Part shown: piece after piece, positions 10,088-61,718 of the stretch | Position numbering within the stretch: the first letter of the stretch is position 1 | Layout of the letters: the number at the start of each line of letters is the position of its first letter | NCBI GenBank assembly: GCA_965230295.1 | Contig: OZ246001.1 | Coordinates: 1,952,001-2,016,000 of the forward strand | Source of the DNA: Marinicella sp. | GTDB taxonomy: Bacteria; Pseudomonadota; Gammaproteobacteria; Xanthomonadales; Marinicellaceae | DNA length: 64,000 nt | Reading direction: 5' to 3' | Notes under the pieces: model-generated | Told to the model about the DNA's origin: nothing | Database searches by the model: none | The model's input: the letters and a program-made list of their open reading frames with translations, nothing else | Translations under genes and position numbers: made by a program

Positions 10088-10236
10088 AAGGAATGTTCTT
10101 GGGGCTTCATTCACTTTTGTTCCAGACAAAAGTGAAAACGACCACGGCGAACATGACTTGCTACCTCGCGCTCTTCGCCTCTGATTCGCATTGCTCACCA
10201 ACCGGCTCGGCGGGTCAAGCTGCTCAGCAGCTTTCC
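10088..10236. repeat. Modular MITE-like repeat, copy A (minimal 149-nt form)
   Basis: AAGGAATGTTCTTGGGGC...AAGCTGCTCAGCAGCTTTCC, homologous to copies at 11549, 38466, 46272 and (inverted) 61304-61718. Confidence 0.92.
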
Positions 10237-10288
10237 CCCGCTGAATCAGTTATAATCATTTCTGTTGAGCACAAAACATTTAATCAAT

Positions 10289-10681
10289 ATGAAAGAAGAC
10301 CTCAAAGCAGAACTCAAAGATAAACTGGATCCGGTCAGTTATGAAGTGATAGTGAACAAAGCCACAGAGCGACCTCACACGGGCGAATACAACCTCAATT
10401 ATCAAGACGGCCAATACACCTGTAAAGCCTGCGGGGAGGTGTTGTTTGACAGTTCGTCGAAATTTGATGCGGGTTGTGGCTGGCCCAGTTTTGATCAAGA
10501 AATAGAAGCCGGTAAAATCAAAGAAGTGTTTGATGAATCTCACGGCATGCGCCGCACAGAAATTGTTTGTGCCAACTGCGAAGGCCATTTAGGACATGTG
10601 TTCAATGATGGCCCAACAGAAACGGGCCTGCGCTATTGTGTGAATTCCGTTTCGCTGGATTTTGCAGCCAGCGAATCATGA
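10289..10681 (+). CDS. msrB: Peptide-methionine (R)-S-oxide reductase
   Basis: [38 protein letters not shown]. Confidence 0.97.
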
Positions 10682-10872
10682 AGGCATGGCTTAAAATCGT
10701 ATTGACGTTAGCGGCACTGACGTTGGCTGAGCCTGGTCGGGCCATGACGGGTATAGATTCGGTGGCTTATTTGTGGGTGATTGGCTTGATATTAATGGGC
10801 ATTTTGGGCTTGCTGGTGTGGGTGATTAAATTTCTGAACCGTGTAAAAGAGGATTCAAAAAAACATGAATGA
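10678..10872 (+). CDS. Small membrane protein
   Basis: MKAWLKIV..., signal-like segment plus one TM; overlaps the msrB stop and the GST start. Confidence 0.55.
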
Positions 10873-11527
10873 AACCATTAAATTAATCATCGGTAACAAA
10901 AATTATTCATCTTGGTCTTTGCGACCTTGGCTGCTGCTGTCTGCTCACAACATTCCATTTGAGGAAATTGTTGTGCCTTTGTATACTGACCAATCAGCTG
11001 CTGAATTGGCCCGTTATTCAGCCGCTGGAAAAGTCCCTGTTTTGCACCATGGTGATGTGGTCATTTGGGATTCGCTGGCCATTTGTGAATATGTATCAGA
11101 ACAGTTCTTGGATGGTAGCGGTTGGCCAAATGACCCTGTTGCCAGGGCATATGCCCGCTCATACAGTGCGGAAATGCATTCTGGTTTTTTTGCCATCCGT
11201 GAAAATTTACCAATGAATTGCCGGGCATCGGATCGGAAGGTTACATTGACGGATGACATCAACAAAGAAGTGTCGCGATTGGATCATATGTGGACTGAAC
11301 TGCGTAACAAATATGCTGCTCAGGGACCGTGGCTATTAGGAAAATTTTCCATCGCAGATTGCATGTTCGCCCCTGTGGCCATTCGGTTCCATACCTACAA
11401 CATTCAGGTGTCTGAAACAGCTGGTCAATACATGCAACAGGTTCTAGAGTACCCAAAAGTTCAACAATGGATGGCCGAAGGTGAAGAAGAAACAGAGGTC
11501 ATCGAAGGATTTGAAGTTGGCCAGTAA
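10865..11527 (+). CDS. Glutathione S-transferase family protein
   Basis: IGNKNYSSWSLRPW, GKVPVL, WDSLAICEY, FSIADCMFAP. Confidence 0.93.
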   Translation: MNETIKLIIGNKNYSSWSLRPWLLLSAHNIPFEEIVVPLYTDQSAAELARYSAAGKVPVLHHGDVVIWDSLAICEYVSEQFLDGSGWPNDPVARAYARSYSAEMHSGFFAIRENLPMNCRASDRKVTLTDDINKEVSRLDHMWTELRNKYAAQGPWLLGKFSIADCMFAPVAIRFHTYNIQVSETAGQYMQQVLEYPKVQQWMAEGEEETEVIEGFEVGQ

Positions 11528-11548
11528 AGAATTGAGTCAATCTATAGA

Positions 11549-11784
11549 AAGGAATGTTCTTGGGGCTTCATTCTGGTTCATGGTCTGACAGGTCTTCATA
11601 TTTGCTGCGCAAATAAACCGACCTTTACAGACTATTGTCTGAGCAGTTGCTTCGCACTGCATGTCTGTTCTAGACAAAAGTGAAAACGACCACGGCGAAC
11701 ATGACTTGCTACCTCGCGCGCTTCGCCTCTGATTCGCGATGCTCACCAGCCGGCTCGGCGGGTCGAGCTGCTCAGCAGCTTTCC
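11549..11784. repeat. Modular MITE-like repeat, copy B (236 nt; core + 92-nt module)
   Basis: Direct alignment with copies A and C. Confidence 0.92.
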
Positions 11785-11859
11785 TGTGTACACTTTTTTG
11801 CCATTGATTGATTGACAGATCCGCCTTATGATTCTTCATTTTCAATGCTGATCAATTTT

Positions 11860-12558
11860 ATGAGTAAAAATATAAAACATGTTTTCACCCTTTTAAAAAC
11901 GATTGCGATCATATTTTTATCAGTGGTGGTGTTCAATTTTTTCTTCGATCGTGCCAACCAGCCCACTGAAGAAGAACAGATAGAAGCCATGCTGGGTGAA
12001 CTTGAGAAACAAGTCAAAACAGTTACCACCAGCAAAGACTCATTTGAGTATCCCATCCAGCGCCGCCCAGCAGCTGAGTATAGGGTGACAGAAAAATCAA
12101 TAGAGGATGCGAGGGGTGATCAGTACCTGTTTATCTGTGCAGTATCTTCGGCAGTTGGCATGGTTCAGAGGGCCCAGACACTGGTGAATCTGGGATTGGA
12201 TCATCAAAATGAATTAACGGTTGATGTGGATAAAATGGTGTTGATGCTGGCCCCCGCTGAGACACTGTGTGAAGAAAGCCGGGTCATTGCCATAGGCTAT
12301 TTTGTACCTGCAGGGACTGGTTGGACAGGCATTTCATCCGGAGACTGGCAATGGTTGGTTCGTACGTCCCATGCCAAAGTGAGTGCCGATGAGATTGAAG
12401 CGACACAGCTATATATGTCAAAAAAGGCAGAATTTATTGCTGATTTTGGCATGATGGACTACCCCGATAAGCTGGATGAGTTTGTGGCTGAGCAATTAGG
12501 CAGAGACCCCAAGTACGTGACGGCTGGTATGTGGAACGATGATTTTGTGAAGCGATGA
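11860..12558 (+). CDS. Hypothetical membrane-anchored protein
   Basis: Long ORF with N-terminal TM; probable start MSKNIKH. Confidence 0.7.
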   Translation: MSKNIKHVFTLLKTIAIIFLSVVVFNFFFDRANQPTEEEQIEAMLGELEKQVKTVTTSKDSFEYPIQRRPAAEYRVTEKSIEDARGDQYLFICAVSSAVGMVQRAQTLVNLGLDHQNELTVDVDKMVLMLAPAETLCEESRVIAIGYFVPAGTGWTGISSGDWQWLVRTSHAKVSADEIEATQLYMSKKAEFIADFGMMDYPDKLDEFVAEQLGRDPKYVTAGMWNDDFVKR

Positions 12559-12628
12559 AGTGCCTAATGCATACATGTGGCCAACCACAAAACACCACAG
12601 GCTACCTGAGCAACAGGAAAGTGGCGCT

Positions 12629-13051
12629 ATGAAACAAACCATCGTACACATCGCTTTGGTGGTTAAAGATTACGATGAAGCGATTGAATTTTATACCCAG
12701 AAACTGAACTTCACCTTGCTCGAAGACCAGTACCAAGCCGAGCAAGACAAAAGATGGGTGGTGGTGGCGCCACCTGGCTCTCATGGCACCACAATCCTGT
12801 TGGCCAAAGCATCCAAACCGGAACAACAGCCGTTCATTGGAAACCAGTCAGGAGGCCGGGTGTTTTTGTTTCTGAACACCGATGATTTTTGGCGAGACTA
12901 CCATGCGATGGTGGCCAAAGGCATACATTTTGTGCGAGAACCCAAGCAGGCTGATTATGGCCTGGTGGCGGTGTTTGAAGATTTGTATGGTAACTTGTGG
13001 GATTTGTTACAACTCAACGATGATCACCCCATAAGCAAAAGATCCGGATGA
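12629..13051 (+). CDS. VOC/glyoxalase family protein
   Basis: HIALVVKDYDEAIEFY...YGLVAVFEDLYGNLWDL; GGA-type SD upstream. Confidence 0.9.
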   Translation: MKQTIVHIALVVKDYDEAIEFYTQKLNFTLLEDQYQAEQDKRWVVVAPPGSHGTTILLAKASKPEQQPFIGNQSGGRVFLFLNTDDFWRDYHAMVAKGIHFVREPKQADYGLVAVFEDLYGNLWDLLQLNDDHPISKRSG

Positions 13052-13115
13052 TCATCACCTCAGTATAGGGCAGTGGTTTATAATTGTTGTAACGACAATT
13101 AACAGGAGCCTAACC

Positions 13116-13517
13116 ATGTCTACCAATTTCATTGCCTGGGGGATCTATTTTTTATTGGCCGCACTGGCTGTCTACTTCAATTGGCACGCAGAAATTCTTC
13201 AGTTTTCAGGTCAGCTGGGACTGGTTAAGTTGGTCATTCTGTTGATTTATATAGGCTTTGTCATTTACAGCTATTATTGCAGTAAGCGTGAAAACATTTT
13301 TCGATCAGTGAAATCAATGGGCCAACTACATTGGGGTCGTCAGATCATGATAGACCTGTATCTGGGCTTTTTGCTGAGTTTATTCATCATATTTTTGCAC
13401 CAAGGACTGCTTGTGATGGCCTTGTGGGCCTTACCTATTCTGTTGTTTGGCAACTTGGCAACTTTGTTGTATTTTGTCATTCATTTTGAATCATTGGTCA
13501 GTCATTTTATGGCCTAA
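13116..13517 (+). CDS. Membrane protein (DUF1475-like)
   Basis: Four hydrophobic segments, WGRQIMIDLYLG, FGNLATLLY; AGGAG SD. Confidence 0.7.
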   Translation: MSTNFIAWGIYFLLAALAVYFNWHAEILQFSGQLGLVKLVILLIYIGFVIYSYYCSKRENIFRSVKSMGQLHWGRQIMIDLYLGFLLSLFIIFLHQGLLVMALWALPILLFGNLATLLYFVIHFESLVSHFMA

Positions 13518-13585
13518 CCAGCCATCAGTTGTCCAAAGTACGACATCAATAGTATAATGGCTTGTCCAAACATCAGGAGCATCCC

Positions 13586-14041
13586 ATGCGCACATTATTG
13601 ATCATTTTTACTTTGGTAAACATCACACTTTTTAAATCGGTTGAAGCAGCACCAGAGATACCTGATCCAAAGTTGCGAGCAGCGGTGGAAGCACTGTCAG
13701 CTTCAACCTTAGTTGATGGCAAAGGCTGGGAAGCCTACGATCGACTGGTTCACCCAGGTTATTCTCGATGGGCCATGGGACAAATTTACGAAGGTCGAGA
13801 AAAGTTTATCAGAAGCCTTGAAGAATGGTGGAACTATGGTATGCGAGTGGCCAAACGCGATATTGAAATGATTGGTGTTGATGTGGTTGGTAACTTGGCT
13901 TTTATACGTTTCAAAACCACTGAGTCATTTACCGGTCCAAACGGTCCAACGGCAGGATTTTCTGGCTATGTATCCAATGTCTGGATCAAGGAAAACGACA
14001 ATTGGCTGTTGTTGTCAGCGGAGATCTCATCGACAGAATAA
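13586..14041 (+). CDS. Secreted NTF2-like (DUF4440/SnoaL) protein
   Basis: Signal peptide; C-terminal VWIKENDNWLL; AGGAG SD before MRTLL. Confidence 0.75.
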   Translation: MRTLLIIFTLVNITLFKSVEAAPEIPDPKLRAAVEALSASTLVDGKGWEAYDRLVHPGYSRWAMGQIYEGREKFIRSLEEWWNYGMRVAKRDIEMIGVDVVGNLAFIRFKTTESFTGPNGPTAGFSGYVSNVWIKENDNWLLLSAEISSTE

Positions 14042-14081
14042 ATCGGCATAAGTTATTTGCTGTTCGAACAAAGTTGATTTC

Positions 14082-14936
14082 ATGAGAACTCTCAGCCAGG
14101 AACTGATGGTTTTGATTGTATTGCTTAGTGTATTTTCTCATTCAGTGGTGGCAGAAACAAATGAACCTGACAGCTCTAATTTCATCAACATCAACAAAGA
14201 TCAATTCGCAGCCAACCTTCACCTTCCCAAGAATCAAACAAACTTGTCTGTTGTTATCGTGATTGGTGGCTCCAGTGGCGGGATGCGAAGTGAAAGAGGT
14301 GAATTGTTGGCATCACAGGGTATTGCGGCTTTGACCTTGGCTTACTTCAGGTATAAAGACCTGCCAAACACTTTAGATAACATCCCGGTTGAAAGTGTGT
14401 TGGATGCGATCGACATCCTAGAAACCATTCCAGGTATTGATGCCAACCGAATTGGCATTTGGGGCGCATCACGAGGCAGCGAATTGGCTTTTTTGGCAGC
14501 AACACACGATCCTCGCATAAAGTCTGTAGTAGCAACCACGCCCAGTTTGGTCGCGTGGCACGGGCAAACCGGTTCAACAGCATGGACCTTAAAAGGCCAG
14601 CCTATCACTGCTTTGAGCTTTGATCGAAGCAGTGATCAATCCTTTTATGCAAGAGCCAGCCGTGCATTGGCAGACAAAGACCAGGTAGCCAAAGCCCAAT
14701 TCAAGTTCAATCAAATCAATGGTCCTTTATTACTTATTTCAGCAGAACAAGATCAGATTTGGCCTTCATACGAGATGGCACAGACCATCAGGAAGCAACT
14801 CGAAGATCAGGATTTTAAACACGCTGTAGAGCACCGTTCTTTCCCGACAGGTCATACCTTCAATGCTGAACTGATGCCTGAAATTAACACCATTGTCATC
14901 AGGCATTTTTTAATATCATTAGCCACATCACAGTGA
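14082..14936 (+). CDS. Alpha/beta hydrolase, acyl-CoA thioesterase/BAAT C-terminal type
   Basis: IGGSSGG, LAYF, GASRG nucleophile elbow, DQIWPS, GH. Confidence 0.85.
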   Translation: MRTLSQELMVLIVLLSVFSHSVVAETNEPDSSNFININKDQFAANLHLPKNQTNLSVVIVIGGSSGGMRSERGELLASQGIAALTLAYFRYKDLPNTLDNIPVESVLDAIDILETIPGIDANRIGIWGASRGSELAFLAATHDPRIKSVVATTPSLVAWHGQTGSTAWTLKGQPITALSFDRSSDQSFYARASRALADKDQVAKAQFKFNQINGPLLLISAEQDQIWPSYEMAQTIRKQLEDQDFKHAVEHRSFPTGHTFNAELMPEINTIVIRHFLISLATSQ

Positions 14937-14976
14937 AGATACAAGGAATTGGTTCATGCTGACGGTTGTCACTACC

Positions 14977-15068
14977 GTCATCCCGGACTCCGATCCGGGA
15001 TCCAGTGTCTTTGTCGTATATGAAGCAACCATTTAAAGACGCTGGATACCAGCCTTCGCCGGAATGAC
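14977..15068. repeat. Compact X/Y REP-doublet element (22-nt spacer)
   Basis: GTCATCCCGGACTCCGATCCGGGATCCAGTGTCTTT-N22-AAAGACGCTGGATACCAGCCTTCGCCGGAATGAC; the arms base-pair. Confidence 0.92.
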
Positions 15069-15158
15069 GTTCGTACTTTAGCCTGAGTACGGGTACATTT
15101 AAAGTCACATGATATTGCCTTGGTGTTAAAATAAGGTGACAAACCTCAAAGTGCAAAC

Positions 15159-25424: not shown

Positions 25425-25952
25425 ATGAGTGAATTAATCACATTAGCAAGACCCTATGCCAAAGCGGCATTTGAGTTCGCCAAAAGTGAGTCTGCTGTAG
25501 ACCAGTGGTCTAAAGACTTGTTGGTTGCTGCCGGATTAGCTCAAAACGAAGAGATTCTTAATTACTTCGGTCGCCCAGATGTTCTGGCCGACGATCTGGT
25601 TCAATTGGTGAGCGGTGATAACAACAGCGAACAATATAAAAACTTTGTTCGGTTGTTGATTGAGAATGACCGCTTGAGCTTGTTGCCAGAAGTGGCTGAG
25701 CTGTACCAATACTACAAAGAACAAGATTCACAGTCGCTGACTGTTGATGTCTATTCAGCCGTAGCATTGACAGCTGACCAACAACAAGCCATGACAGCAG
25801 CTCTCAGCAAGAGAACCGGAAAACAGATCAGCTTGCAAACGCACATCGATGAAAACATGATGGGCGGTGCCAGAATTCACTGTGGAGATTTGGTGATTGA
25901 TGGTACTTTACGCGGCAAAGTAGATCGCTTGAAGACACAACTTGGAGCATAG
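25425..25952 (+). CDS. atpH: ATP synthase F1 subunit delta
   Basis: TLARPYAKAAF, GDLVIDGT. Confidence 0.97.
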   Translation: MSELITLARPYAKAAFEFAKSESAVDQWSKDLLVAAGLAQNEEILNYFGRPDVLADDLVQLVSGDNNSEQYKNFVRLLIENDRLSLLPEVAELYQYYKEQDSQSLTVDVYSAVALTADQQQAMTAALSKRTGKQISLQTHIDENMMGGARIHCGDLVIDGTLRGKVDRLKTQLGA

Positions 25953-26115
25953 CGACCCGATAAGTTGGTTGGTGAGCTTCGCGAATCAGAAGCTTATCGT
26001 TAGAACTAAAGTTTCGAGTGAAGTCGATTTTCACAACTTGATGTGAAAGCAGAGAAACGAGACACATTTATAACTAATTTAAGTCAGCAGACTTAAGAGA
26101 ATACGAGGAAATGCA
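25953..26115. repeat. Structured 163-nt atpH-atpA spacer containing a repeat-derived module
   Basis: GGTTGGTGAGCTTCGCGAATCAGAAGC (25967-25993) matches the reverse strand of the MITE core; stems CGATAAG/CTTATCG, TTTCACA/TGTGAAA and TTAAGTC/GACTTAA. Confidence 0.65.
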
Positions 26116-30550: not shown

Positions 30551-31408
30551 ATGTCGGACGAAAAATCATTAATTAATTTGGGTGATTTAACTAAACCAGT
30601 AACAGTTTTAATTGAAAAAGTTTCAAATGCTATTGGTGTTTTATACGAGCCACGAAGAATTAAAAAGATAGGCCAAGCAAACGCTGCTGTTAAAAAGATT
30701 GAAGCTATTACAGAATTGGAAATTAGTGACCTTCAAAGAAGAGGGCTGGAAAGGATTGTTAATCAATCTGCAAGAAAACAAAACAATATTGAAAACATAA
30801 TATCAAATGCAATTGTTGATATTCCTGATGATGCTGAAACTGAAAAGATTGAGGAAGATTGGATAGCGCACTTTTTTGGAAAATGTGAGAATGTTTCTGA
30901 TAAAGAGATGCAATCACTTTGGTCTAGAATATTAGCTGGTGAAGCTCGAAAACCTCAAACATTTTCTAAAAAAACGTTAAATTTGGTAGCTTCTTTAGAT
31001 AAGTCTGATGCTGAACTATTTACTTCTTTATCTCGTTTTGTTTGGATGGTATCTGAGAAGCCTGTTCCAATATTTTTCGATACTGATCATGAGATTTATA
31101 TTGACAATAAAATTAGATTTATTGATTTAAAGCATTTAGATTATCTTGGCCTAATCTCATTTGATGCCACATCTGGATACAAGCTTGATGTAAAAGAAGG
31201 TAATAGATTAATGGGATATTTTAGTAGATCAATATTGATCAATTTTCAAAACTCTAAAAAAAATGAAATCCAATTAGGCAAAGTAATGCTAACCAAAGCC
31301 GGTGAAGAGCTTTTTAAAATATGTGCGGTGGAATACAATTCTGATTTTTATTTTTATGTCATACAAAAATTATTTGATCAAGGACTGTGTATTTCTTCAC
31401 GTTTGTAA
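30551..31408 (+). CDS. DUF2806-like protein, AT-rich
   Basis: RKQNNIENI, IEEDWIAHFF, EMQSLWSRILAGE, FSKKTL, LTKAGEEL. Confidence 0.8.
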   Translation: MSDEKSLINLGDLTKPVTVLIEKVSNAIGVLYEPRRIKKIGQANAAVKKIEAITELEISDLQRRGLERIVNQSARKQNNIENIISNAIVDIPDDAETEKIEEDWIAHFFGKCENVSDKEMQSLWSRILAGEARKPQTFSKKTLNLVASLDKSDAELFTSLSRFVWMVSEKPVPIFFDTDHEIYIDNKIRFIDLKHLDYLGLISFDATSGYKLDVKEGNRLMGYFSRSILINFQNSKKNEIQLGKVMLTKAGEELFKICAVEYNSDFYFYVIQKLFDQGLCISSRL

Positions 31409-31479
31409 AAAAACCAAGTGTTTATCTTTATGGGTCATAAACATAAAGAGGTCAGTTCCCTTTTAATATAACTAAAGAG

Positions 31480-32308
31480 AATCAATCGAGTCAGAGGTGC
31501 TTGATTTATATTGTGTTGGGATTTTTGGCGATCAGCCTGACTCACAATTTATTATCGTTCGAATTGCCGGCGTAGGCCGGCATCCAGCCAGGTAGGTTGG
31601 GCTGAACAACGTGAAGCCCAACAGGGATCTGCAATTAAGGTTTGTTGTTGGGCTTCGCAAGCTCAGCACCAACCTACGTTAATAGCCAGACATCGTCAGA
31701 CCAGTTAAAGTCGGAATCAATGGGGTCAGAGTCATTAATCAGATAGTAACCACCATCAAAAAGGCGCTGGATCCCGGATCAATGACGATAGTAGAACAAT
31801 GTCATTGCGAGCGGAGCGTGGCAATCTCATGAACCTGTAAAATGTTTGGAGATTGCCGCGGTCGTTCCTCCCTCGCAATGACGGAAGCACAAAGGAATAA
31901 CTCCGTTATGTGTGGTGGGCTATTCCCTCCATATGTATTGTTTAAAACCTCAGTTCCGTCTTACCGGCGCAGGCCGGTATCCAGTGTCTTTTTACATTAT
32001 TTGATCCTACAGATAATTATGGAAGCTTCGCTTGTTTGCTGCGCAAACTGGATCCCCGGGTCAAGCCCGAGGATGACGGTAGTGAAAGTAGGTCATTCCG
32101 ACCGAGTATAGCGAGTGGAGGAAAAAATAGCAGAATAGCTGTTTTTTCACGCGAAGCGACCCGTAGGGTGAACGGCAGGAGCCGTGAATTAATCTCATGA
32201 ATCTGGAGAATAGTTATCAGATTGCCGCGTCGCTGCGCTCCTCGCAATGACTCAAGTTTCTGAGAATGTCTGGTCTTTAGGGGATTCCTCGGCTGCGCTC
32301 GGGATGAC
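31480..32308. repeat. Mosaic cluster of REP-like palindromes (BIME/REPIN-like)
   Basis: X/Y doublets at 31561-31786 and 31958-32077; GTAG-REP pair at 31592-31677; AATCAATGGGGTCAGAGTCA at 31715; GTCATTGCGAG...CTCGCAATGAC at 31801-31882; further units at 32092-32251 and 32281-32308. Confidence 0.9.
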
Positions 32309-32435
32309 ATGTTAACGCTCCAGCCAAATCGAGCGCCATATGTTCAAAATATCAGCCACTGCAGCGCCGAGCTTCTTGCAGATAAAGGGTATTTAAGCCA
32401 TAAGTTATAATGATAAATTTACTGATGTCCTAATT

Positions 32436-33395
32436 ATGAATGCGACACAACATTTGACTTTGCGGCTACTCATTGTTCTGATGGTTTTGGTTCATCAACC
32501 ATGCCGCGCTGAGAAACCAACAGCCCGCTGGGGGCATGTATTTATTTATGACCCGGCAAGAGATGAAATATTGATGTTTGGCGGAGCAAAAGGTCGCCAA
32601 CAATATTTGAATGATACATGGATTTGGAGAGCTGGGAATTGGCAGCAGCAAATGACAGGTGGGCCAGGGGCGCGTGGCTTCAGTGCAGCAACCTATCATT
32701 CGGGTCGTGAAACCATAGTCATTCATGGCGGGCGGGATAATGATAATAAAAGTCTTTCAGATACCTGGGAATGGAACGGTAAAAAGTGGAGTTTGTTGAG
32801 TGCAAGCAGTGATTTTGTCGCTGACCATCATAAAATGACGTATTTGCCAAAAGAAGGAACCATACTTGCATTTGGCGGTTGGGATGGCCAGGGTGTGAAT
32901 GGCCATACCTGGATATGGGATAATGAATGGCAGAAGATTCAGACTTTATCGCCACCAGCGCGTTCTGCATTTGGAATGACCTATGATCCAACCCGAGACG
33001 CTGTCATCGTTTATGGTGGGTTGTGGATTCAAGGCCAATATGCAGATGTATGGAAGTGGGAAAAAGGTCTGTGGCAAGCGTCGAGTGGGCCTTATGATAA
33101 TTCGTCTTTGGATCACCATGAGTTGGTGTTTGATCATAAAATCAATAAAATCATAGGTTTTGGGGGTAAGAATTACCGATACCAGGCCCAAACCAAAACT
33201 TGGCAAGTTAAAGGTGGAAAAGTCTCTGAGTTATCACGCACTGGCCCCAATGCGCGATACAGCATTGGGCTTACTTATCACACCAAACTTAACCGGGCGT
33301 ATTTATTTGGTGGTAAAAAACAAGAGCAGGGAAAAACACTTCCACTGGATGACTTTTGGTATTGGGATGGGGAAAGTTGGTATTTGATTGAATAA
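32436..33395 (+). CDS. Secreted kelch-repeat beta-propeller protein
   Basis: Signal peptide; six repeats of the form PxAR..H.M.YD...(F/Y)GG...DTWxW. Confidence 0.85.
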   Translation: MNATQHLTLRLLIVLMVLVHQPCRAEKPTARWGHVFIYDPARDEILMFGGAKGRQQYLNDTWIWRAGNWQQQMTGGPGARGFSAATYHSGRETIVIHGGRDNDNKSLSDTWEWNGKKWSLLSASSDFVADHHKMTYLPKEGTILAFGGWDGQGVNGHTWIWDNEWQKIQTLSPPARSAFGMTYDPTRDAVIVYGGLWIQGQYADVWKWEKGLWQASSGPYDNSSLDHHELVFDHKINKIIGFGGKNYRYQAQTKTWQVKGGKVSELSRTGPNARYSIGLTYHTKLNRAYLFGGKKQEQGKTLPLDDFWYWDGESWYLIE

Positions 33396-33418
33396 GCATA
33401 ATGTACTTCTCTTTTATT

Positions 33419-34010
33419 GGAAATCAATGGGGTAAAGGTGCTCGTTAGGGCAAGGCAGCACTGTAAGAGCCCTGAGCCATAACATCACTATTTCGTCTTG
33501 CCGGCGTAGGCCGGCATCCAGTGTCTTTCATATGGTATTCAATTATTGTTAATACTCAACTTAAGAGTTTTCTAAAAGACACTGGATCCCGGATCGCCAA
33601 AAGTAGGTCCATTAAGGAAGTCCGGGCAGGAATTGATCCAATCAATTCTCTGCATTCACCACGATGACGATAGGTGGCAAGATCAGTGGTAAATAAAGGG
33701 TCAGTATCCTTGAGCAGGATTTTTCTTAGTTCGTCATCCTGCGGCTTGACCGCAGGACCCAGGTGCGGGATGATAAAAACATTTGGATATTGTCCTAAAC
33801 TTAAAGGTCCACTTGCCTGGATTCTGTGGTCAAGCCACAGAATGACGGTAGAAGGAGCTTAACATTCCAACCTACGACTATTTCTGTTTCGAATTACCGG
33901 CGCAGGCCGGTATCTAGCGTCTTTTAACATTTTTTGATCCTACAGATAAATATGGAAGCTTCGCTTGTTTGCTGCGCAAACTGGATCCCGGATCGAGTCC
34001 GGGATGACGG
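33419..34010. repeat. Second mosaic REP-like cluster
   Basis: X/Y doublets at 33495-33668 and 33891-34008; GTCATCCTGCGGCTTGACCGCAGG...CTGTGGTCAAGCCACAGAATGAC at 33733-33846. Confidence 0.9.
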
Positions 34011-34024
34011 TTTTTAAGAGATGT

Positions 34025-35896
34025 TCATTCAAATGAATCCCTGAAAATCAGATCATTTTCGGCCAGCACTTCGATAACAGCTGGTTGGGTGGTGACTTGG
34101 AGGAGCCAGTCGGTGGAGGCGATTTGACCATCTTGGTCGACATCCAGATACAGGGCGGTGATCAAGTCGTAAATACCGGGTGGGATACTGGGATCTATTT
34201 GGAAGGATCGTTGTAGTGTGTTATTACCTGATAGAGTGATGGAAAAAGACACATCATTACCAGGATCTGAATAGTAGTTGATGCCATCAAACAAACTGGC
34301 GCCCAATAAAACAGGTCCAAAAGGGTGGGTGGAATCACTGGCATTGAACACCTCAAAATCGATGGTGAATGTTTCATTCACTGTGATGACGGGCACGTCG
34401 GTGCTGATGGAATCCAGGCGGATGGGGGTGCTGGCGTATTGATTGCGTTGACCTGCAGGGTTGTTACTGGCGTTGTAGTAATGATCGACAATGTCTGCAA
34501 AACTTTCGCCAGCTTGTGCTCTGAACTGTGTACCCCATTGTGACATGCCCCGGCCATGACCAAAACACCCCAGGCCAGCAGCCAAAGGATCTGCCAAACA
34601 GGTCCAGCCTGTCGCCGGGGAACCGACCGAACCATCGCCACAAGACAAATCGGCATTGGAACAGTTCAAACCGTCATTGGGGTCATCCCAACTGTTGTTT
34701 TGGGCCGAATATTCGGAGCGGGCCAACGCGCCATTTTGGTCCAGCATGATGCCGTTGGTGGCAATACCGGCATTGATGGTACTGGTAAAACCGGTGAATT
34801 CAAAGGCCTGACAACAAGGCCCGGCACAAATGTCGTAGCCTGAATAAGGTTGGTTGATGACATGCCAGGCGCCGTAAGATCGAAATGGGATGGTGCCTGC
34901 TTTTAAACTGTCTGGGTCCCAAGAAGAGATCCACTCATTATCCAGGCCGCGTTGCACGTAGGTTTCTAACGAGTAGACTTGACTGGTGACGCAATTGGAG
35001 CCACAACAAGTCCCGCCAGAACCATTGAAACCAACCCGTATGCTGGACGGAGGTTCCAGGTAGACGGCACCGGTTGATCGTTCTCTGCTGCTGATAAAGT
35101 CATCATGAATGTTTTCATGGTTGAATTTAGCACTCAGCCAATCGTGATCAATGTCACCGCCAAGAAGTCCAGTGAGTGGGTGCAGCAGGCTCTTTTCTTG
35201 CAGCCCTTGGCCCGGTTTTAAATCCATGACCATATGGACCTGAGCCTGGGTGTCGATGTCAGTCCAGCGTTGTGCTTGATAGCCTGGATGTTCAACCATG
35301 AGCGTGATGTTTTTGGGCAAGATTTCTGTGAAAACAAAAGCGCCCTGATGATCGGTAAACATTTGGGCATAAAATTCTCCACTGGAGATGATCACGGCCA
35401 CTTCTGTTAAAGGTTTTGCGGTCGTCTGATCGTAGAGGAAACCACACAGTTGAGCCTGGTCACAGAAAGATTTTGATTCAGTTTCTTGAGTCTTATCAAG
35501 CATGATTTGGGTTATCGGTATGTGTGAGTTGGCTGCTAAGTAGGTGTGCAGTGGTTGATAACCATCGGCGGAAACGGTCAGTACTTGTAAGTGCTTATCA
35601 GGCAAGACCTGAAAAAAATGATCGGTGGCCAACAACTCTTGTTGTTTGAGTTTAAGCACCTCATCGGGTAATTTTTGCCCGAGTTTAATCTGGTGCCATT
35701 GGTCAGGAGTCAGCTGTTCCTGGTTAATGGAATGGAGGGTGATTTTGGCATCCAGCGGCGCACCAGTATGACTGTCTCGCACAGTGAACTGAAACGCACT
35801 GCCAATGGCTGATTGACACCACAACAGTATGATCATGTACTTGATCAAAAGAGCGGTTTTTTGACGTTTTGTGCTGGGTTTCATGATTGCAGTCAA
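34025..35896 (-). CDS. Secreted SpoIID/LytB-domain protein with carboxypeptidase-regulatory-like domains
   Basis: LETYVQRGLDNEW...SLKAG...RSY, GHGRGMSQWG, IVDHYY; ends NDLIFRDSFE. Confidence 0.85.
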   Translation of the reverse strand: MTAIMKPSTKRQKTALLIKYMIILLWCQSAIGSAFQFTVRDSHTGAPLDAKITLHSINQEQLTPDQWHQIKLGQKLPDEVLKLKQQELLATDHFFQVLPDKHLQVLTVSADGYQPLHTYLAANSHIPITQIMLDKTQETESKSFCDQAQLCGFLYDQTTAKPLTEVAVIISSGEFYAQMFTDHQGAFVFTEILPKNITLMVEHPGYQAQRWTDIDTQAQVHMVMDLKPGQGLQEKSLLHPLTGLLGGDIDHDWLSAKFNHENIHDDFISSRERSTGAVYLEPPSSIRVGFNGSGGTCCGSNCVTSQVYSLETYVQRGLDNEWISSWDPDSLKAGTIPFRSYGAWHVINQPYSGYDICAGPCCQAFEFTGFTSTINAGIATNGIMLDQNGALARSEYSAQNNSWDDPNDGLNCSNADLSCGDGSVGSPATGWTCLADPLAAGLGCFGHGRGMSQWGTQFRAQAGESFADIVDHYYNASNNPAGQRNQYASTPIRLDSISTDVPVITVNETFTIDFEVFNASDSTHPFGPVLLGASLFDGINYYSDPGNDVSFSITLSGNNTLQRSFQIDPSIPPGIYDLITALYLDVDQDGQIASTDWLLQVTTQPAVIEVLAENDLIFRDSFE

Positions 35897-38465: not shown

Positions 38466-38701
38466 AAGGAATGTTCTTGGGGCTCCATTCTGGTTCATGG
38501 TCTGACAGGTCTTCATATTTGCTGCGCAAATAAACCGACCTTTACAGACTATTGTCTGAGCAGTTGCTTCGCACTGCATGTCTGTTCCAGACAAAAGTGA
38601 AAACGACCACATCGAACATGACTTGCTACCTCGCGCTCTTCGCCTCTGATTCGCATTGCTCACCAACCGGCTCGGCGGGTCAAGCTGCTCAGCAGCTTTC
38701 C
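38466..38701. repeat. Modular MITE-like repeat, copy C (236 nt)
   Basis: Near-identical to copy B; bounded by an 8-bp inverted repeat CTAAGGAA/TTCCTTAG (38464-38705). Confidence 0.92.
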
Positions 38702-43703: not shown

Positions 43704-43704
43704 T

Positions 43705-44382
43705 TTATTCCCTCAATTCATTGATTTCTAAATACAGCTCGTTGATGGCGGAATGAGGCAATTCCAGTTCATCAGCCAATTGAGTTCGTGCCACAAAAAC
43801 CTCACCTGAATGGATGGTAAGCAGTCGTGGTAATGGTTTTGTGCTGCTGACCGACAGGATGTGATCCGCCGCCGGTTTGCTGTCAATTAAACGAACATAA
43901 TAATGTGTTTTGTCATGTTTGTTGGAACTGATCAATTGATAGGACAGCTGGGATTTTGGTGACAAACCTTGCAACGACTGGTTGATGATTATGCTTTGAA
44001 CTTGCATGATTAACCCTTTGGCATGCAGGGTACCTCCTCGCTCAAAATGACCTCGGTAAAGGTTCACCTTGACCTTGAATCCTGGTTCAGTGATCTGGTT
44101 CAAATCAAATGGCTCTGGAACCAGGCTGATGAGATCAGTTGCATTCATCCATTGTTCAACGGCCTCTTCATCTGTACCGATGAATTTAACGGCAGCAATC
44201 ACTTGTTGGTCATGAGGGTTGTGGAACAACGGCAGGTGTGAAATATACAGTTGATTGGCACCTCCAAATAATAGCATGCCATGGGTACCGTGTTTGCTTT
44301 GATTTTCAGGATGCTCGGCCCAAGAGATTGAGGCCATAAACACCCACATGAAAAATATCATTTTGGATGAATTCAACATCAT
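43705..44382 (-). CDS. Hypothetical secreted His-rich protein
   Basis: Start MMLNSSK overlaps the gdx stop (ATGA); signal peptide; HGTHGMLLFGG...SHLPLFHNPHD...YRGHFERGG. Confidence 0.75.
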   Translation of the reverse strand: MMLNSSKMIFFMWVFMASISWAEHPENQSKHGTHGMLLFGGANQLYISHLPLFHNPHDQQVIAAVKFIGTDEEAVEQWMNATDLISLVPEPFDLNQITEPGFKVKVNLYRGHFERGGTLHAKGLIMQVQSIIINQSLQGLSPKSQLSYQLISSNKHDKTHYYVRLIDSKPAADHILSVSSTKPLPRLLTIHSGEVFVARTQLADELELPHSAINELYLEINELRE

Positions 44383-44696
44383 TGAACCTCCGTTTGATTG
44401 AATAAGAAAATACCCGCAACAATCAGCATAACAGCGAACCATGATTGAGTTGATAAATGATTCTGAAAATATGTATGCTGGATCAAGGCCGTACCCACCA
44501 GGCCAGAACTGGTCCATACCGCATAAGCAAATGTCAAAGGGACTGTTCTGATGGCAATGGCCAGGAAGTAAAAGCTGGCGATCATGGTCAATACAACCCA
44601 TGACAACAGCAACAATTTAGATGGGGCTTCGGCGTAAACTTTTAACAGATTAACCCAAATGATTTCAAACAGGGATGACAGGATCAGGAATTTCAT
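44379..44696 (-). CDS. SMR-family transporter, probable guanidinium exporter Gdx/SugE
   Basis: 105 aa, four TMs, FEIIW (membrane Glu), AYAVWTSSG; follows a guanidine-II riboswitch. Confidence 0.85.
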   Translation of the reverse strand: MKFLILSSLFEIIWVNLLKVYAEAPSKLLLLSWVVLTMIASFYFLAIAIRTVPLTFAYAVWTSSGLVGTALIQHTYFQNHLSTQSWFAVMLIVAGIFLFNQTEVQ

Positions 44697-44723: not shown

Positions 44724-44766
44724 GGGGCCGTCCCCATTTGAATAAGAGCGGTCAGGTCGTCCTGAC
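44724..44766 (-). promoter_or_regulatory. Guanidine-II (mini-ykkC) riboswitch
   Basis: Two ACGR-capped hairpins GTCAGG-ACGA-CCTGAC and GGGG-ACGG-CCCC with a 15-nt linker, 27 nt before the SMR start codon. Confidence 0.9.
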
Positions 44767-45035
44767 TTCTGTAGAGGCCGCCATTGTAATGGCAATCCAA
44801 ATCATTTTCAAGACTGGACCATTGTCCTGATTAATGAAAAGTTTAGATTGAATTAATGCATATATAACACAAATAAAATATACATATATGAAATAAAATA
44901 TTCACCCAAATAAAACAATAAATTAACTTGGCTTGACTATCATGGTACCCGTTCTGAGGACAAAACAAATAATCATTTCTTGGAACACACCCCCAACATT
45001 TGGTTGGGTTTTTTTAACTTATGAGAGAGTAAACC

Positions 45036-46271: not shown

Positions 46272-46627
46272 AAAGAATGTTCTTGGGGCTCCATTCTGGT
46301 TCATGGTCTGACAGGTCTTCATATTTGCTGCGCAAATAAACCGACCTTTACAGACTATTGTCTGAGCAGTTGCTTCGCACTGCATGTCTGTTCCAGACAA
46401 AAGTGAAAACGACCACGGCGAACATGACTTGCTACCTCGCGCTCTTCGCCTCTGATTGGCCTACATGGATGTAGGTCTGCCGCGATAGCTAGGAGCGATA
46501 GCGGCCGCAACATCAATAGCTCACGGCTAATCAATCATTACATCAAGGCTTATTGACTTCGTCAAACCGCCATGATTGCATGATTTGCCTAACCGGCACG
46601 GCGGGTCAAGCTGCTCAGCAGCTTTCC
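46272..46627. repeat. Modular MITE-like repeat, copy D (356 nt)
   Basis: Same ends as copies A-C; carries the 92-nt module plus about 120 extra nt at 46448-46590. Confidence 0.92.
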
Positions 46628-55871: not shown

Positions 55872-55929
55872 TGTTTGACACACATGTATTCTTGCAGTTT
55901 AATAAATGGGTTAATAGTTGGAGATGGTT

Positions 55930-56292: not shown

Positions 56293-56301
56293 AATTGAAA
56301 T

Positions 56302-57618: not shown

Positions 57619-58749
57619 TCATTTACCCTTGCTTTTTTTACCATTGAGTAACCAGCCAATCGGTGACCACCTGACCAGACCGGCATAGCTGATCAAGCCA
57701 ATGCCAAAGGTGATCACGGTCGAAAGGAAAAATTCCAGCCACATCTTCCATTGTAGATCTAAAAACGCATACTGCACCACAAACAACACCGGGATGTGGG
57801 TGATGTAAATCCAATAGGATGAATCGGCGATGTAGCGGATGGTTTTGTTGTGCTGATTGAGCCAGCGGTGGCCGGCGATCAAGCATGCCAGGGTCATGTA
57901 CCAGGCAGTGATGCTTTCGGAAATGGCCATCAATAAGGTGCCTTCCATCGCTGGAACCCGGTACAGGAAATAACCGTAGCTGCCCATGCCGATCAACAAC
58001 AGCCAAGGTAAATAAGGGTATAGCTGTTTGATCAAGTTTTGGTGTTTGAATAACAAGGCGCCGATCACAAAGAACAGACCATACAAGCCAAAAGGCCACA
58101 ACAGCGGTTTCAAAGTTTCAGGAGCCGGGTGGGGCGCATTGATGCTGTAAAACACCGGAATCAATAACAAGGGCATCACAAAAACCATCACCCAAGGCCG
58201 CATCAGTTGTGCCAACCATTGACTTTGCATCACCCGCAATAAGCGCAGGCCGAGTAACACCAAGTAAAAGAAGCACAGGTAATACAAGAACCACAGGTGC
58301 GAGGTGTTGATTGGCATGTTGTCCGTCGCACCTGATTGGGCACTGTTGATCATGAAATACAAGGCTGGTGAAGGTTTTTCTACATGCACGGCAGCCCATT
58401 CAATGCCAGCCACAATGGCCCACAGCACCAAGGGTAGAAAGATGACAAAGGGCAGCAGCACTCGCAGACCGCGGTTATAGAGAAACCTCAGCAGACCGCG
58501 TTTTTCAATCAGGTAAGTGGCAAAGAATCCAGCGATCAAGAAAAACAGTGGCATCCGAAACAAATGACTGAACCAGGCAAACACGTCTATTGCAGGTGAT
58601 TGTTGGTCGGCCGTTGGCCAGAAAAAGTGCAGCATGGGACTGTAAGCCAAACTGGCATGGAACACCACACCGGTCAGCATCGCCAGAGCGCGCAAGTTGT
58701 CCATATAATGGTAACGAACACCTGGTTTTATGGTGGCTTCAGTATTCAT
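57619..58749 (-). CDS. Acyltransferase family 3 (OpgC/MdoC-like)
   Basis: RYHYMDNLRA, FRMPLFFLIAGFF, HLWFLYYL, SYWIYITH. Confidence 0.9.
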   Translation of the reverse strand: MNTEATIKPGVRYHYMDNLRALAMLTGVVFHASLAYSPMLHFFWPTADQQSPAIDVFAWFSHLFRMPLFFLIAGFFATYLIEKRGLLRFLYNRGLRVLLPFVIFLPLVLWAIVAGIEWAAVHVEKPSPALYFMINSAQSGATDNMPINTSHLWFLYYLCFFYLVLLGLRLLRVMQSQWLAQLMRPWVMVFVMPLLLIPVFYSINAPHPAPETLKPLLWPFGLYGLFFVIGALLFKHQNLIKQLYPYLPWLLLIGMGSYGYFLYRVPAMEGTLLMAISESITAWYMTLACLIAGHRWLNQHNKTIRYIADSSYWIYITHIPVLFVVQYAFLDLQWKMWLEFFLSTVITFGIGLISYAGLVRWSPIGWLLNGKKSKGK

Positions 58750-59453
58750 AGGAAATCCTTTTTACGGCCCTGGATGTAATAGGTCAGCAACAAGACAACT
58801 GCGATGAATATGAATTCAGCCGCGATGATGGTCATGGCGGTACCATTCCACACGGCAGATGTACTGTCCATGTGGACTTTGATGTCATTGACACTGGAGA
58901 GCCAAAACATGAACAGCGAAAGTCCAATGTTGGTCAAGGCCATGATCACAATGGTCCAGGTTTGCGATTCACTGATCAAACCCACAGCCAACAACAGGAA
59001 GAACACACACAACATTTCTAACATCAGAATGGTGGCATACACTGCCAGTCCATCAGGGATCTGCGGTTGACTGTAGATCACCGCCAACAGGCCGCCCACC
59101 ATGATCAACCAAAAGATCATGAATGCGGTTACATTGGCACAAACCTTGGCGTGGGTGTATTGCAGAAAGGTGATGGGCAAGCTCATGACGAAGGCCAGGG
59201 TCTGATCATTGCGGTCGTTGATGACGGTGTTGAAAATCAATTGTGCCATGGCGACTATGATCATAGACAACAGAATCACAGAGCCGGCGTAAAAGGGGCC
59301 TTTGGCTTCGAAAGTCAATAACCACAGGCTGATCAAACCCATGACCAAATACAGCACCAATGGACCGATGTTCAATTGAATGTCCTTGACGATCAAAGCT
59401 TGAATGATGCCTGGTTTTTTTGTGAAAACTGGATTTTCATTGAAAGTGTTCAT
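58746..59453 (-). CDS. ABC-2 transporter permease
   Basis: LIVKD, SLPIT...YTHAK, six TMs. Confidence 0.85.
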   Translation of the reverse strand: MNTFNENPVFTKKPGIIQALIVKDIQLNIGPLVLYLVMGLISLWLLTFEAKGPFYAGSVILLSMIIVAMAQLIFNTVINDRNDQTLAFVMSLPITFLQYTHAKVCANVTAFMIFWLIMVGGLLAVIYSQPQIPDGLAVYATILMLEMLCVFFLLLAVGLISESQTWTIVIMALTNIGLSLFMFWLSSVNDIKVHMDSTSAVWNGTAMTIIAAEFIFIAVVLLLTYYIQGRKKDFL

Positions 59454-60367
59454 GCCGCGACTCCGGTTTTGATCTGGTTTCTTTTGGCTTCAACTTCAGC
59501 CACAAAAATTTCTTCCAGGCTCATGTAGTTCACTTGTTGAACGGTGGCACCTTGAGATTCAAGCTGGCCCAGAATCGATTCTTCAAAATCCTTGATGACC
59601 AGATTGGCCGTGTGGCCGCGCTGGATGATCTCCTTGATTTGGTCATTGACTTGGATACGGTGTGCATCATCTACCCGCAGCCGCACCCGGCGCCAATTTT
59701 CGATGTATGATTCTTTGTCATTGCTGCTGACCAATTGGCCGCGATCGATGAAGGTGATTTGGTCTGATAACTGTTCTACATCCTGGGTGTTGTGTGAAGA
59801 AAATAAGACGCTGCGATTTTCATCGTTCAACACCGCCATCATTTCATTCAGCACCTCTTTGCGTGCCACGGGATCCAATCCAGTGGTGGGTTCATCCAGG
59901 ATCAACAACCGTGGGTGCCTGGCCAGCATCAGCAACAAACTGGCTTTGACCCGTTGTCCATGAGACATGCCTTTGATTTTTTGGGCTGGAATTAAATCAA
60001 AATTTTGAATCAGCTTTTCGGCATATTGGTGATCCCATTGGTCAGGAAATATGTGTGCGATGAAATTCATGTGCCAATCCAGTGTGGCATTTTTATACAG
60101 TCGCATGTCTTCAGAAGCATAACCAATGAAGTTCTTTGCCAACACTTGTGCCTCAGGTATCCGGTGGCCAAACACCTCGACTTGCCCCTGATCTGCACCT
60201 ACCAAGCCCATCAGAATGCGTATGATGGTGGATTTACCGGCACCGTTTGGGCCAATCAAACCCATGATGCCACCCGTCGGCAGTTCAAGGCTTATGTCTT
60301 GCAGCTTGAAATGTTCATAACGGCGACTCACGCCTTGCATCCGGAATGCTGATTCACTCATGTTCAT
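59450..60367 (-). CDS. ABC transporter ATP-binding protein
   Basis: GPNGAGKST, MSHGQ, LDEPTTGLD, SSH. Confidence 0.95.
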   Translation of the reverse strand: MNMSESAFRMQGVSRRYEHFKLQDISLELPTGGIMGLIGPNGAGKSTIIRILMGLVGADQGQVEVFGHRIPEAQVLAKNFIGYASEDMRLYKNATLDWHMNFIAHIFPDQWDHQYAEKLIQNFDLIPAQKIKGMSHGQRVKASLLLMLARHPRLLILDEPTTGLDPVARKEVLNEMMAVLNDENRSVLFSSHNTQDVEQLSDQITFIDRGQLVSSNDKESYIENWRRVRLRVDDAHRIQVNDQIKEIIQRGHTANLVIKDFEESILGQLESQGATVQQVNYMSLEEIFVAEVEAKRNQIKTGVAA

Positions 60368-60743
60368 CTCCTGAGTCAGCCAGCTCTTTGAGTCTGGCCA
60401 TCAATTCTTCTGTGCTGATACCAAATGACTTGGCATGTTCTAAAGCACTGGTCAAGTGTTTATCTATTTCTGTTTGCATGATTTGATCTCCTAAATCATC
60501 GTTCTGTGCCACAAAAGACCCGACGCCCGCTTGGGTCATCAACACACCTTCATGTTCAAGTTCCTGATAAGCCCGTTTGACAGTGATGACGCTGACTTGG
60601 GTGGCTACGGCCAATTCACGGATGGACGGTACTTTGGCACCTGGGTGCCAATCACCAACAGCAATCAGTTGTTTGATTTGTTCCATGATTTGTAAATACA
60701 TGGGCCGGCCATCGGTTTGTGATAAGACTAAATATGGGTCCAT
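60354..60743 (-). CDS. GntR-family regulator, YtrA subfamily
   Basis: PMYLQI, PSIRELA, TVKRAYQELE; short C-domain; precedes ABC genes. Confidence 0.92.
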   Translation of the reverse strand: MDPYLVLSQTDGRPMYLQIMEQIKQLIAVGDWHPGAKVPSIRELAVATQVSVITVKRAYQELEHEGVLMTQAGVGSFVAQNDDLGDQIMQTEIDKHLTSALEHAKSFGISTEELMARLKELADSGDEHE

Positions 60744-60754
60744 TGTTCACTTTC

Positions 60755-60784
60755 TGTATATATTATATATGCACAGTATATACA
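60755..60784. promoter_or_regulatory. Putative YtrA/GntR operator
   Basis: Inverted repeat TGTATATA-N14-TATATACA 11 nt upstream of the GntR start codon. Confidence 0.65.
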
Positions 60785-60936
60785 CGACATGCACGGAGTC
60801 AAGTTTTTTCGGACAATTGATTCGTAAATCTACTTATTTTTCAACTTTTAGATTAATTGCTCTAATGGGTTCAGCCAACATCGAAACTGAACTGTACAAG
60901 CTGTTTGTTAAGCATCAGGAAGCGAGGATTAAGAGT

Positions 60937-61221
60937 ATGCAAAAAGCGTTAACATTAATGATTATGGTGGTTTTAGGTGGTCAAATCAGGGCTCAAGACA
61001 TCACAGAAAGTGACTTGTTTGGCATGAACCAAACCCATCAATTTGAAACGATTGATCAAATGGCGGCCTATATCAAGGACCAAAAACCAACCACTTACCG
61101 ATATTATCTAAGACTGAATGCCCCAGCCAGAAAACGAGTTTGGCAACAACTCCAAGCCGACCAAAATTCAGACATCACCGAAATGGTTTTGGAAGAATAC
61201 CGGCACCGACCCAGGGGGTGA
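60937..61221 (+). CDS. Small secreted hypothetical protein
   Basis: GAGG SD, signal peptide MQKALTLMIMVVLGGQIRA. Confidence 0.65.
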   Translation: MQKALTLMIMVVLGGQIRAQDITESDLFGMNQTHQFETIDQMAAYIKDQKPTTYRYYLRLNAPARKRVWQQLQADQNSDITEMVLEEYRHRPRG

Positions 61222-61303
61222 TAACGACAGGTCTCACTGAATCAAACGGAGAACTGTCGGACAGTTCGACCAGCGCAGGTAATGAAAGCATGATGGTTTA
61301 CCT

Positions 61304-61718
61304 GAAAGGTAATAAGCCTTGCTTGAATACCGTAGCGCGTGCACTCGGTTAGGCAGATCATGTAAGAATGGCGATTTGACAAAGTCAAGAAGCCTTGATG
61401 GAATGATCGATAAGCCGTGAAGCTAAAGCTAAGCTGGTCGCTTCCGCATCGATCCCCAGGACGGGGTGAATGCAGAGAATTGTTGGGAACAATTCCTGCC
61501 TGCTCTCGCGACAGACCTACATCCTTGTAGGCCAGTCAGAGAGTGTAAGCCCGAGGTACTATGCTATGGCCGCTGCGGCCGCTTTCACTTTTGTAGGAAC
61601 AGACATGCAGTGCGAAGCAACTGCTCAGACAATAGTCTGTAAAGGTCGGTTTATTTGCGCAGCAAATATGAAGACCTGTCAGACCATGAACCAGAATGAA
61701 GTCCCAAGGACATTCCTT
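61304..61718. repeat. Modular MITE-like repeat, copy E (inverted, divergent, largest)
   Basis: Reverse complement aligns to copy D from about 61346 to 61718; 92-nt module identical; left boundary approximate. Confidence 0.88.

Follow-up and report, generated by a model that had tools for sequence, protein, structure and literature searches.

Why does one bacterial repeat family occur in copies of increasing size, in which each larger copy appears to contain a smaller one? The question is raised by a 64,000-nucleotide (nt) stretch of a Marinicella sp. genome (GenBank assembly GCA_965230295.1, contig OZ246001.1, positions 1,952,001 to 2,016,000; hereafter the window), for which an earlier reading of the letters alone, the initial annotation, described five repeats, copies A to E, that grow by nested hairpin modules, and suggested that they are either a non-autonomous element or a structured RNA gaining sub-elements site-specifically. 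We found that the description holds: the repeats are gene-free, their additions sit at fixed sites and modules do lie within one another. The family to which the five copies belong is abundant far beyond chance, and between the two halves of that suggestion we favour the DNA element over the structured RNA. We put at roughly 60% the probability that these are small, gene-free, self-folding mobile repeats, with a core moved in trans, likely as single-stranded DNA at the replication fork, and with modules that land on the core.

Copy A (10088..10236, plus strand) is the bare 149-nt core and scores 180 bits against a covariance model (CM) of the family. Copies B (11549..11784) and C (38466..38701), both on the plus strand and 236 nt long, consist of this core and one module, M1 (11574-11665 and 38491-38582, respectively). 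Copy D (46272..46627, plus strand, 356 nt) carries, in addition to the core and M1 (46297-46388), the modules Y (46458-46506), placed at GATT^CGC, and X (46525-46590), placed inside the loop of helix P4b. The coordinates and lengths of these four copies are exactly those initially given, and the AAGGAATG-type left end and GCTTTCC right end ascribed to them were both borne out. Copy E is real and inverted, as had been claimed, but its extent is longer than proposed: it occupies 61248..61718 on the minus strand (471 nt) and is built on the core of a second subfamily, with M1 (61602-61693), Y (61436-61533) and two X modules (X1, 61351-61416; X2, 61273-61339). Its right end, ..GGTCGAACTGTCCGACAGTTCTCC, is specific to that subfamily, of which bare 150-nt cores are found at other places in the genome. 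The Y module of copy E is itself interrupted by another, M2b (61450-61498), giving three levels of nesting (core > Y > M2b); this nested module is the further unit that had been noticed in E, to which the second X comes in addition. The 92-nt module in place of ACTTT is indeed present in B to E, and the extra ~120 nt of D resolve into Y and X at adjacent sites. A sixth, degenerate member (25944-26068, minus strand; CM match, E 3.3e-5) lies antisense in the atp operon, in the gap that separates atpH from atpA; all six copies are intergenic. This old copy in the ATP synthase operon retains CTTCTGATTCGCGAAGCTCACCAACC.

The source genome (G000) is a single 4,008,074-bp contig of 44% G+C, in which 94 pattern matches to the 25-nt left end and 77 to the 37-nt right end are found. 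Curation left 63 complete left-to-right units, which come in a set of discrete sizes between 149 and 633 nt: 148/149 nt (14 units), 236 nt (7), 633/634 nt (7, near-identical to each other), 355/356 nt (4) and 420 nt (3), with 215, 269, 300, 453 and 485 nt seen twice each and 18 more sizes once each. Many of the unpaired left ends are diverged subfamilies of identical architecture. Three truncated 122-nt units of a diverged subfamily stand head to tail in tandem at about 1313040-1313402 (minus strand) of the genome.

Members of the family occur throughout the genus Marinicella and in a further lineage of its order. By BLAST, 19 of the 23 other Marinicella genomes and 1 of 17 from outside the genus had matches to the core, in a survey that scored up to 20 candidates per genome; matches per genus genome ranged from 0 to at least 28 scored, and first-look candidates numbered up to 137 in one genome. 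The CM search detected the family in all nine sampled genomes of the genus, weakly in a single genome (G024, best E 6e-6) from a second genus of the same taxonomic family, and in a genome of another taxonomic family (G033; 15 matches, best E 2.7e-17); the remaining 109 genomes searched within the order gave no match. Pattern matches occur in records of Marinicella pacifica, M. gelatinilytica and several uncultured Marinicella; the few matches in unrelated taxa have only a 17-24-nt word in common and no left end. The 23-nt core word had no match in viral contigs. A metagenome scan yielded 19 loci, all of them short units with no long or autonomous form among them, and all 18 CM matches there were 230 nt or shorter. 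Among the papers listed for Marinicella genome repeats and for nested hairpins of miniature inverted-repeat transposable elements (MITEs), the latter all of a general kind, titles and abstract openings contain no description of the family.

What all units have in common is the core, 149 nt folded into five helices: P2 (positions 6-11/62-67), P1 (23-33/39-49), P4 (96-102/123-129), P4b, which closes the invariant loop CACCAACC, and P5 (130-146). The two halves of the core are not mutually complementary, and no single palindrome runs across the whole unit. The fold was assessed on an alignment of 45 distinct cores from G000 and titled Marinicella loci. In the five-helix model 94.4% of the cells hold standard pairs, compared with 40-50% when the 3′ partners are slid by one to three columns, and 19 pairs are changed on both sides, compared with 2-7 in the slid alignments and 9.4 ± 1.5 after shuffling (none of 500 shuffles reached 19). 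Compensatory pairs number four to five each in P1, P2 and P5, and two of three in P4b; variation in P4 is one-sided only (U.G to U-A). The copies of G033, which are ~60% G+C, have P1 rebuilt as CCATTTCG/CGAAATGG, P2 as CCGT/ACGG and P5 as GGCTAG/CTAGCC, and retain the single-stranded motifs despite the changed letters of the helices. These motifs, GTTCTTGGG, GAAAGCG.CC.CGGCGA, CTCTGA, the loop C(A/G)CCAACC and GGCGGGTC, are invariant throughout, G033 included. On the sense strand, three near-invariant consensus G.T wobbles account for 124 of the 146 G.T cells, and A.C cells number 20. The data support a core that is a folded single strand, of RNA or of DNA.

A structured non-coding RNA (a small RNA, a ribozyme, or a guide or scaffold) could show the same picture. 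The modules would then be tolerated expansion segments, and the multiplicity and mobility of the units would be secondary or the RNA would be part of the movement; we regard this as a real, if minor, possibility. The compensatory changes in the five helices, the motifs retained even in G033 and the consensus G.U pairs confined to one strand all speak for it, as does the entry of modules, which leaves the core helices intact as junctions. However, Rfam, a check proposed at the outset, gave no family at the gathering threshold and only chance-level matches at E values up to 10, none of them credible. There is also no room for an upstream promoter within the unit, because conservation begins at the first paired bases, and copy number runs from none or one to more than 100 between species. 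An open frame that passes through the core from an ATG at position 6 was rejected as a coding sequence: the lengths of the modules are not divisible by three, and the substitutions compensate one another within hairpins.

The family is mobile. In run X2, from a relative ~98% alike over the compared pieces, one contig (depth 10.4) joins window position 11548 to 11793 and thereby skips copy B. Between these points lie 8 letters, which differ from the window at four places and whose counterpart there, 11785-11792, has the same number of bases; copy B is thus missing with a precision of a few bases, and no duplicated target is seen in this comparison, which is of the empty-site kind that the initial annotation had called for. 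That one copy can be absent from so close a relative also speaks against the structured RNA. At a second locus (L013), two genomes (G001 and G002) have a unit after the stop codon of the gene upstream; a third (G016) is empty, with a short unrelated spacer, and a fourth (G014) has 148 unrelated bases. Three further candidates for empty sites (L029, L050 and L057) matched in rearranged form or on one side only, and were set aside. For copy A, the relatives have diverged too far, a single gene segment being alignable (71-84% alike), and the cover of run X2 does not extend upstream of A.

The flanks of the 63 units likewise lack a target-site duplication (TSD): identity between the two flanks was seen in 4 of 63 units at 3 nt and in none at 4 nt, and at 2 nt in 11, against 4.6 expected at a flat 0.27 per position, a value that A/T-rich flanks would raise. 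The terminal inverted match is weak (GGAATG and GGAAAG, 5 of 6). The flanks have preferences, namely A at position -3 (37/52) and A or T at -1 and -2.

The orientation of the units is not random. The cumulative GC skew places the origin of replication at about 1.71 Mb and the terminus at about 3.82 Mb. On this map, 47 of 63 units (binomial p = 1e-4) have their sense strand (AAGG..TCC) as leading-strand sequence and hence on the lagging-strand template, as do all 14 bare cores and 66 of the 94 left ends; of the crude gene calls, 60% (1903/3168) are on the leading strand. The units lie between convergent (19), tandem (34) and divergent (10) genes; between tandem genes, 18 are co-oriented with their neighbours and 16 opposed, and where the tandem genes are on the lagging strand, 11 of 13 units are still in the leading orientation. 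Orientation thus tracks replication, not transcription. This indifference to neighbouring genes is a further point against the RNA explanation, and a comparable strand pattern is known for single-strand transposition of the IS200/IS605 type. The leading-strand bias is therefore the main argument for a single-strand DNA route.

How, then, do the copies grow? Alignment of every unit to the core reveals five insertion sites, at core positions 24-30 (S1), 54-59 (S2), 82 (S3), 102 (S4) and 110 (S5), and modules occur at them in all combinations, which bears out the claim that the additions have fixed positions. M1 (92 nt) lies at S1, where it replaces 5 nt (ACTTT) of the 5′ arm of P1. Y (~48 nt) consists of the hairpin GGCCTNCA-NGGA-TGNAGGYC and a second, imperfect helix, and X (~65 nt) of AAGGCTTNTT, a variable stem and then AAACCGCC. 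M2b (~48 nt) is nested within Y, and M4a (51 nt) was placed via a 633-nt reference. Each module folds alone, with paired ends or closed hairpins (z -2.2 to -3.8 across modules), in agreement with the view that each addition is itself palindromic. An M2b-like mini-hairpin (33625-33663, plus strand; 90% alike to 61462-61500) also occurs outside the family, where it splits an unrelated 30-nt hairpin of the repetitive extragenic palindromic (REP) type. The REP in question, at 33582-33668, is interrupted by two mini-inserts, one of them this M2b-like hairpin.

M1 is present in G000 in 42 copies, which have a mean pairwise identity of 97.8%, compared with 88.7% for the left core flank, and which sit at one and the same junction in three host subfamilies with clearly different cores; among the 23 other genomes of the genus, 21 lack any match to M1, and in two the matching pieces are no longer than 37 nt. 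Since the 5-nt replacement is identical in all hosts, copying is favoured over repeated independent insertion. A comparison of three orthologous loci, in M. pacifica (L016), M. gelatinilytica (L089) and an uncultured Marinicella (L011), with flanks 82-95% alike, is informative about Y: L016 alone carries it, cleanly at GATT^CGC, in a core that is otherwise identical to that of L089 at 149 of 149 positions. Y was gained in situ in L016. Y occurs in at least six contexts and in both orientations, after GATT, GACT, GGCT, AAGT(G) and CGAC, and reversed near S1 in two loci (L051 and L088), and the variants of its hairpin are compensatory (A-T, C-G, G-C). In the four-gamete test all four combinations were found for every pair of modules, and also for modules against distant single-nucleotide differences in the core (columns 20, 37, 51, 71 and 73). 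Modules thus move independently of the core, and they assort and spread independently.

These results bear on the reading that the initial annotation named as the one to disprove its own, namely that internal deletion of a single long parent (here, the 633-nt form) produced the short copies, or that the family represents the ends of a known insertion sequence (IS). The seven near-identical 633/634-nt copies do exist, and hairpins are prone to deletion. However, the bare core contains ACTTT, which is missing from the M1 form and completes the covarying P1. The short form is also the common one elsewhere (148-151 nt in 31 of the 49 sized units of other Marinicella loci, ~150 nt in G033), M1 is confined to G000 save for the short fragments in two relatives, and no direct repeats flank the module boundaries. 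In G000, no left-to-right end pair longer than 634 nt encloses a gene, no gene lies inside the units and no IS has the ends of the family; Pfam-family searches of the whole genome gave no match to TnpB (PF07282), RVT_1 or the IS110 DEDD family. Self-comparison of the genome at 500 bp or more returned only rRNA operons, the family itself, paralogous or internally repetitive genes and a 1745-bp pair, with no multi-copy IS. We therefore reject the idea of deletions from one long parent, and consider the whole reading very improbable. The 1745-bp sequence (1827740-1829484 and 3240985-3242729; L128) is 99.94% identical between its two copies, has no open reading frame (ORF) of 100 amino acids or more except a doubtful one of 119, and has no Rfam match.

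We propose instead that the 149-nt core would be moved by an enzyme supplied elsewhere in the genome, and that it would most likely move as single-stranded DNA at the replication fork, because insertion is precise and without target duplication and the folding strand lies on the lagging-strand template. The core would serve as a landing site for smaller self-folding modules at five fixed positions, some of them nested. Modules may arise through rare de novo insertion, after which homology-guided copying (gene conversion, in a homing-like manner) would probably carry them from one paralogous copy to another and the composite would transpose as a whole; the recently polymorphic copy B is an M1-bearing composite. 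The data themselves show the family, its fold, mobility, strand bias and nesting, and the modules' independent assortment and spread; the single-strand DNA mechanism, conversion as the copying route and an enzyme acting in trans are inferred from them.

Several findings weigh against this proposal, the first of which concern the enzyme. The Pfam-family searches of the whole of G000 identified no mobilising enzyme, and in the window, as had been claimed, there is no transposase among 67 ORFs scanned against Pfam; the sole recombinase among them is a XerC-like gene adjoining dapF. G000 has exactly one Y1_Tnp gene, a single-copy, RAYT-like gene at 1669300-1669863 (L103, 1300-1863), which encodes 187 amino acids with HVH and Y motifs. 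In one alternative, the family would be a REPIN-like population that this one Y1 (HUH) transposase maintains and mobilises; the lack of TSD and the strand bias, both of which suit HUH single-strand chemistry, and the vertical inheritance of copies at orthologous sites would agree with it. Yet the gene is bordered by its own, different REP (GGAGCG and GTTGACTTCAGTCAAC), not by the family, and that REP recurs genome-wide as single hairpins, its core GACTTCAGTC being present at 18 + 23 sites. The only close orthologues of the gene detected are those of G023 and G003, both of which contain an in-frame TGA, and a partial one in G012; G003 has no BLAST match to the family core. Conversely, two copy-rich genomes, G019 (94% complete) and G021 (99% complete), have no PF01797 match despite 100 and 137 first-look family candidates, respectively, the highest counts of all. 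We thus consider movement by the RAYT-like protein unlikely. Kinship between the X hairpin TTGACTTCGTCAA and the REP of the RAYT was also considered and rejected, since the X stems differ among themselves by compensatory changes (TTGAC, TTATC, TTTGC, TTACC).

Other points against the proposal concern the target, the strand and the conservation of the core. Among 52 units there is no conserved 4-5-nt target word 5′ of the element, as IS200/IS605 would need. On the other side, G is found at position +4 in 39 of 52 units of G000, in 32 of 45 at other Marinicella loci and in 7 of 7 in G033, with positions +1 to +3 varying; this G may belong to the element or reflect a target preference. Sporadic G.T (22) and A.C (20) cells are balanced and do not tell the strands apart, so the strand call comes from the consensus wobbles alone. 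The leading-strand bias would also fit strongly expressed RNA genes, and it resembles the bias of genes with high expression. Conservation extends over almost the entire core and is not confined to the ends: orthologous units are 97-100% alike (identical at 149/149, 144/149 and 194/197 positions), compared with 81-95% for their 250-nt flanks. That orthologous copies are more conserved than the flanking genes favours an RNA, and core conservation would suit a selected function and a selfish element alike; the identity of the orthologues could stem either from selection acting on every copy or from conversion to a stable consensus. Finally, conversion is a route of module spread that we infer.

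The window has further features of its own. A guanidine-II (mini-ykkC) riboswitch (44724-44768, minus strand; 44.3 bits against a gathering score of 32) lies upstream of a minus-strand ORF (43705-44601) with no Pfam match. The intergenic tracts of 31400-34030 are dense with other families of short hairpin repeats, including GTCATTGCGAG..GGCAATCT, CCGGCGTAGGCCGG..ATCCAGTGTCTTT and ACTGGATCCCGGA..TCCGGGATGACG. The product of the plus-strand ORF 3558-4973 has a GmrSD domain at its N-terminus and is type IV restriction-like.

The family offers an unusually clean natural system for the question of how gene-free hairpin repeats move and evolve, with a covarying fold, a clear bias towards one replication strand, a near-identical strain in which one allele is empty, and three levels of nesting; M1, with its 42 near-identical copies at one junction, has been caught in mid-sweep. 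The repeats also have practical consequences, as they fragment short-read Marinicella assemblies, in which many draft contigs end within them, and give rise to spurious ORFs. Since no known transposase family tracks the repeats, the identity of the enzyme could reveal a new route of mobilisation. Going further is speculative, and the odds are against it: the core may be a new kind of fork-coupled element, the whole folded strand of which is the substrate of an enzyme outside the Y1, TnpB, IS110 and reverse transcriptase families, and which hosts protein-free 'hyperparasite' hairpins (M1, Y, X and M2b) that home to fixed sites and spread through diverged subfamilies.

How does the family compare with known systems? 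The REP/BIME mosaics and REPIN-RAYT systems of E. coli and Pseudomonas (PMC3116915; bioRxiv 10.1101/2021.07.10.451892) are short, gene-free intergenic hairpin repeats with many copies, long vertical retention and mosaic forms, the movement of which is thought to use HUH single-strand chemistry without TSD. The Marinicella family resembles REPs and REPINs in being gene-free, intergenic, multi-copy, vertically kept and a mosaic of hairpins. REPs are single hairpins of 20-40 nt and REPINs inverted doublets of them, and a RAYT gene is flanked by the same REP. In contrast, the Marinicella unit is a 149-nt core of five helices, the sole RAYT-like gene has another REP, and the repeats do not co-occur with RAYT, as the two copy-rich genomes without Y1 illustrate.

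With the palindrome-associated elements derived from IS200/IS605 (PATEs) the family shares precise insertion without TSD, end hairpins and the bias towards the lagging-strand template, to which, as Ton-Hoang et al. are said to have reported in 2010, IS200/IS605 transposition is coupled. Unlike PATEs, it has no fixed 5′ target of 4-5 nt, no TnpB match in G000 and, in the genomes compared, no TnpA that tracks it, and it is conserved throughout. Classical MITEs, derived from IS630/Tc1 or IS5, are small and non-autonomous, and the pneumococcal BOX element is modular. The Marinicella family is likewise small, non-autonomous, multi-copy and intergenic, and modular as BOX is; it differs from classical MITEs in lacking a TSD and a parent IS and in having only the weak 6-nt terminal inverted match.

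The longer variants of the ERIC/IRU repeats of enterobacteria, with internal inserts at fixed sites, were reportedly described by Sharp and Leach in 1996 and by Wilson and Sharp in 2006. ERIC is one long imperfect palindrome with few types of insert, the longer variants carrying inserts of ~70 nt. Like ERIC/IRU, the Marinicella repeat is ~130-150 nt long, intergenic and conserved between species, with longer variants that result from inserts at fixed sites; unlike it, the Marinicella core has five separate helices and five sites, with at least five kinds of module, three levels of nesting and a module present in 42 copies. The small dispersed repeats (SDRs) of Nostoc, reportedly described by Elhai et al. 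in 2008, are said to be cyanobacterial hairpin units of ~21-27 nt. As in the Marinicella family, tiny hairpin units are inserted without TSD into other repeats and hence become nested; the Marinicella modules, however, are 48-92 nt long, gammaproteobacterial and mostly restricted to one host element. ERIC variants with fixed-site inserts and the Nostoc SDRs would be the nearest known descriptions. The Marinicella family is thus ordinary in kind, being one of gene-free hairpin repeats, and unusual in its architecture and behaviour.

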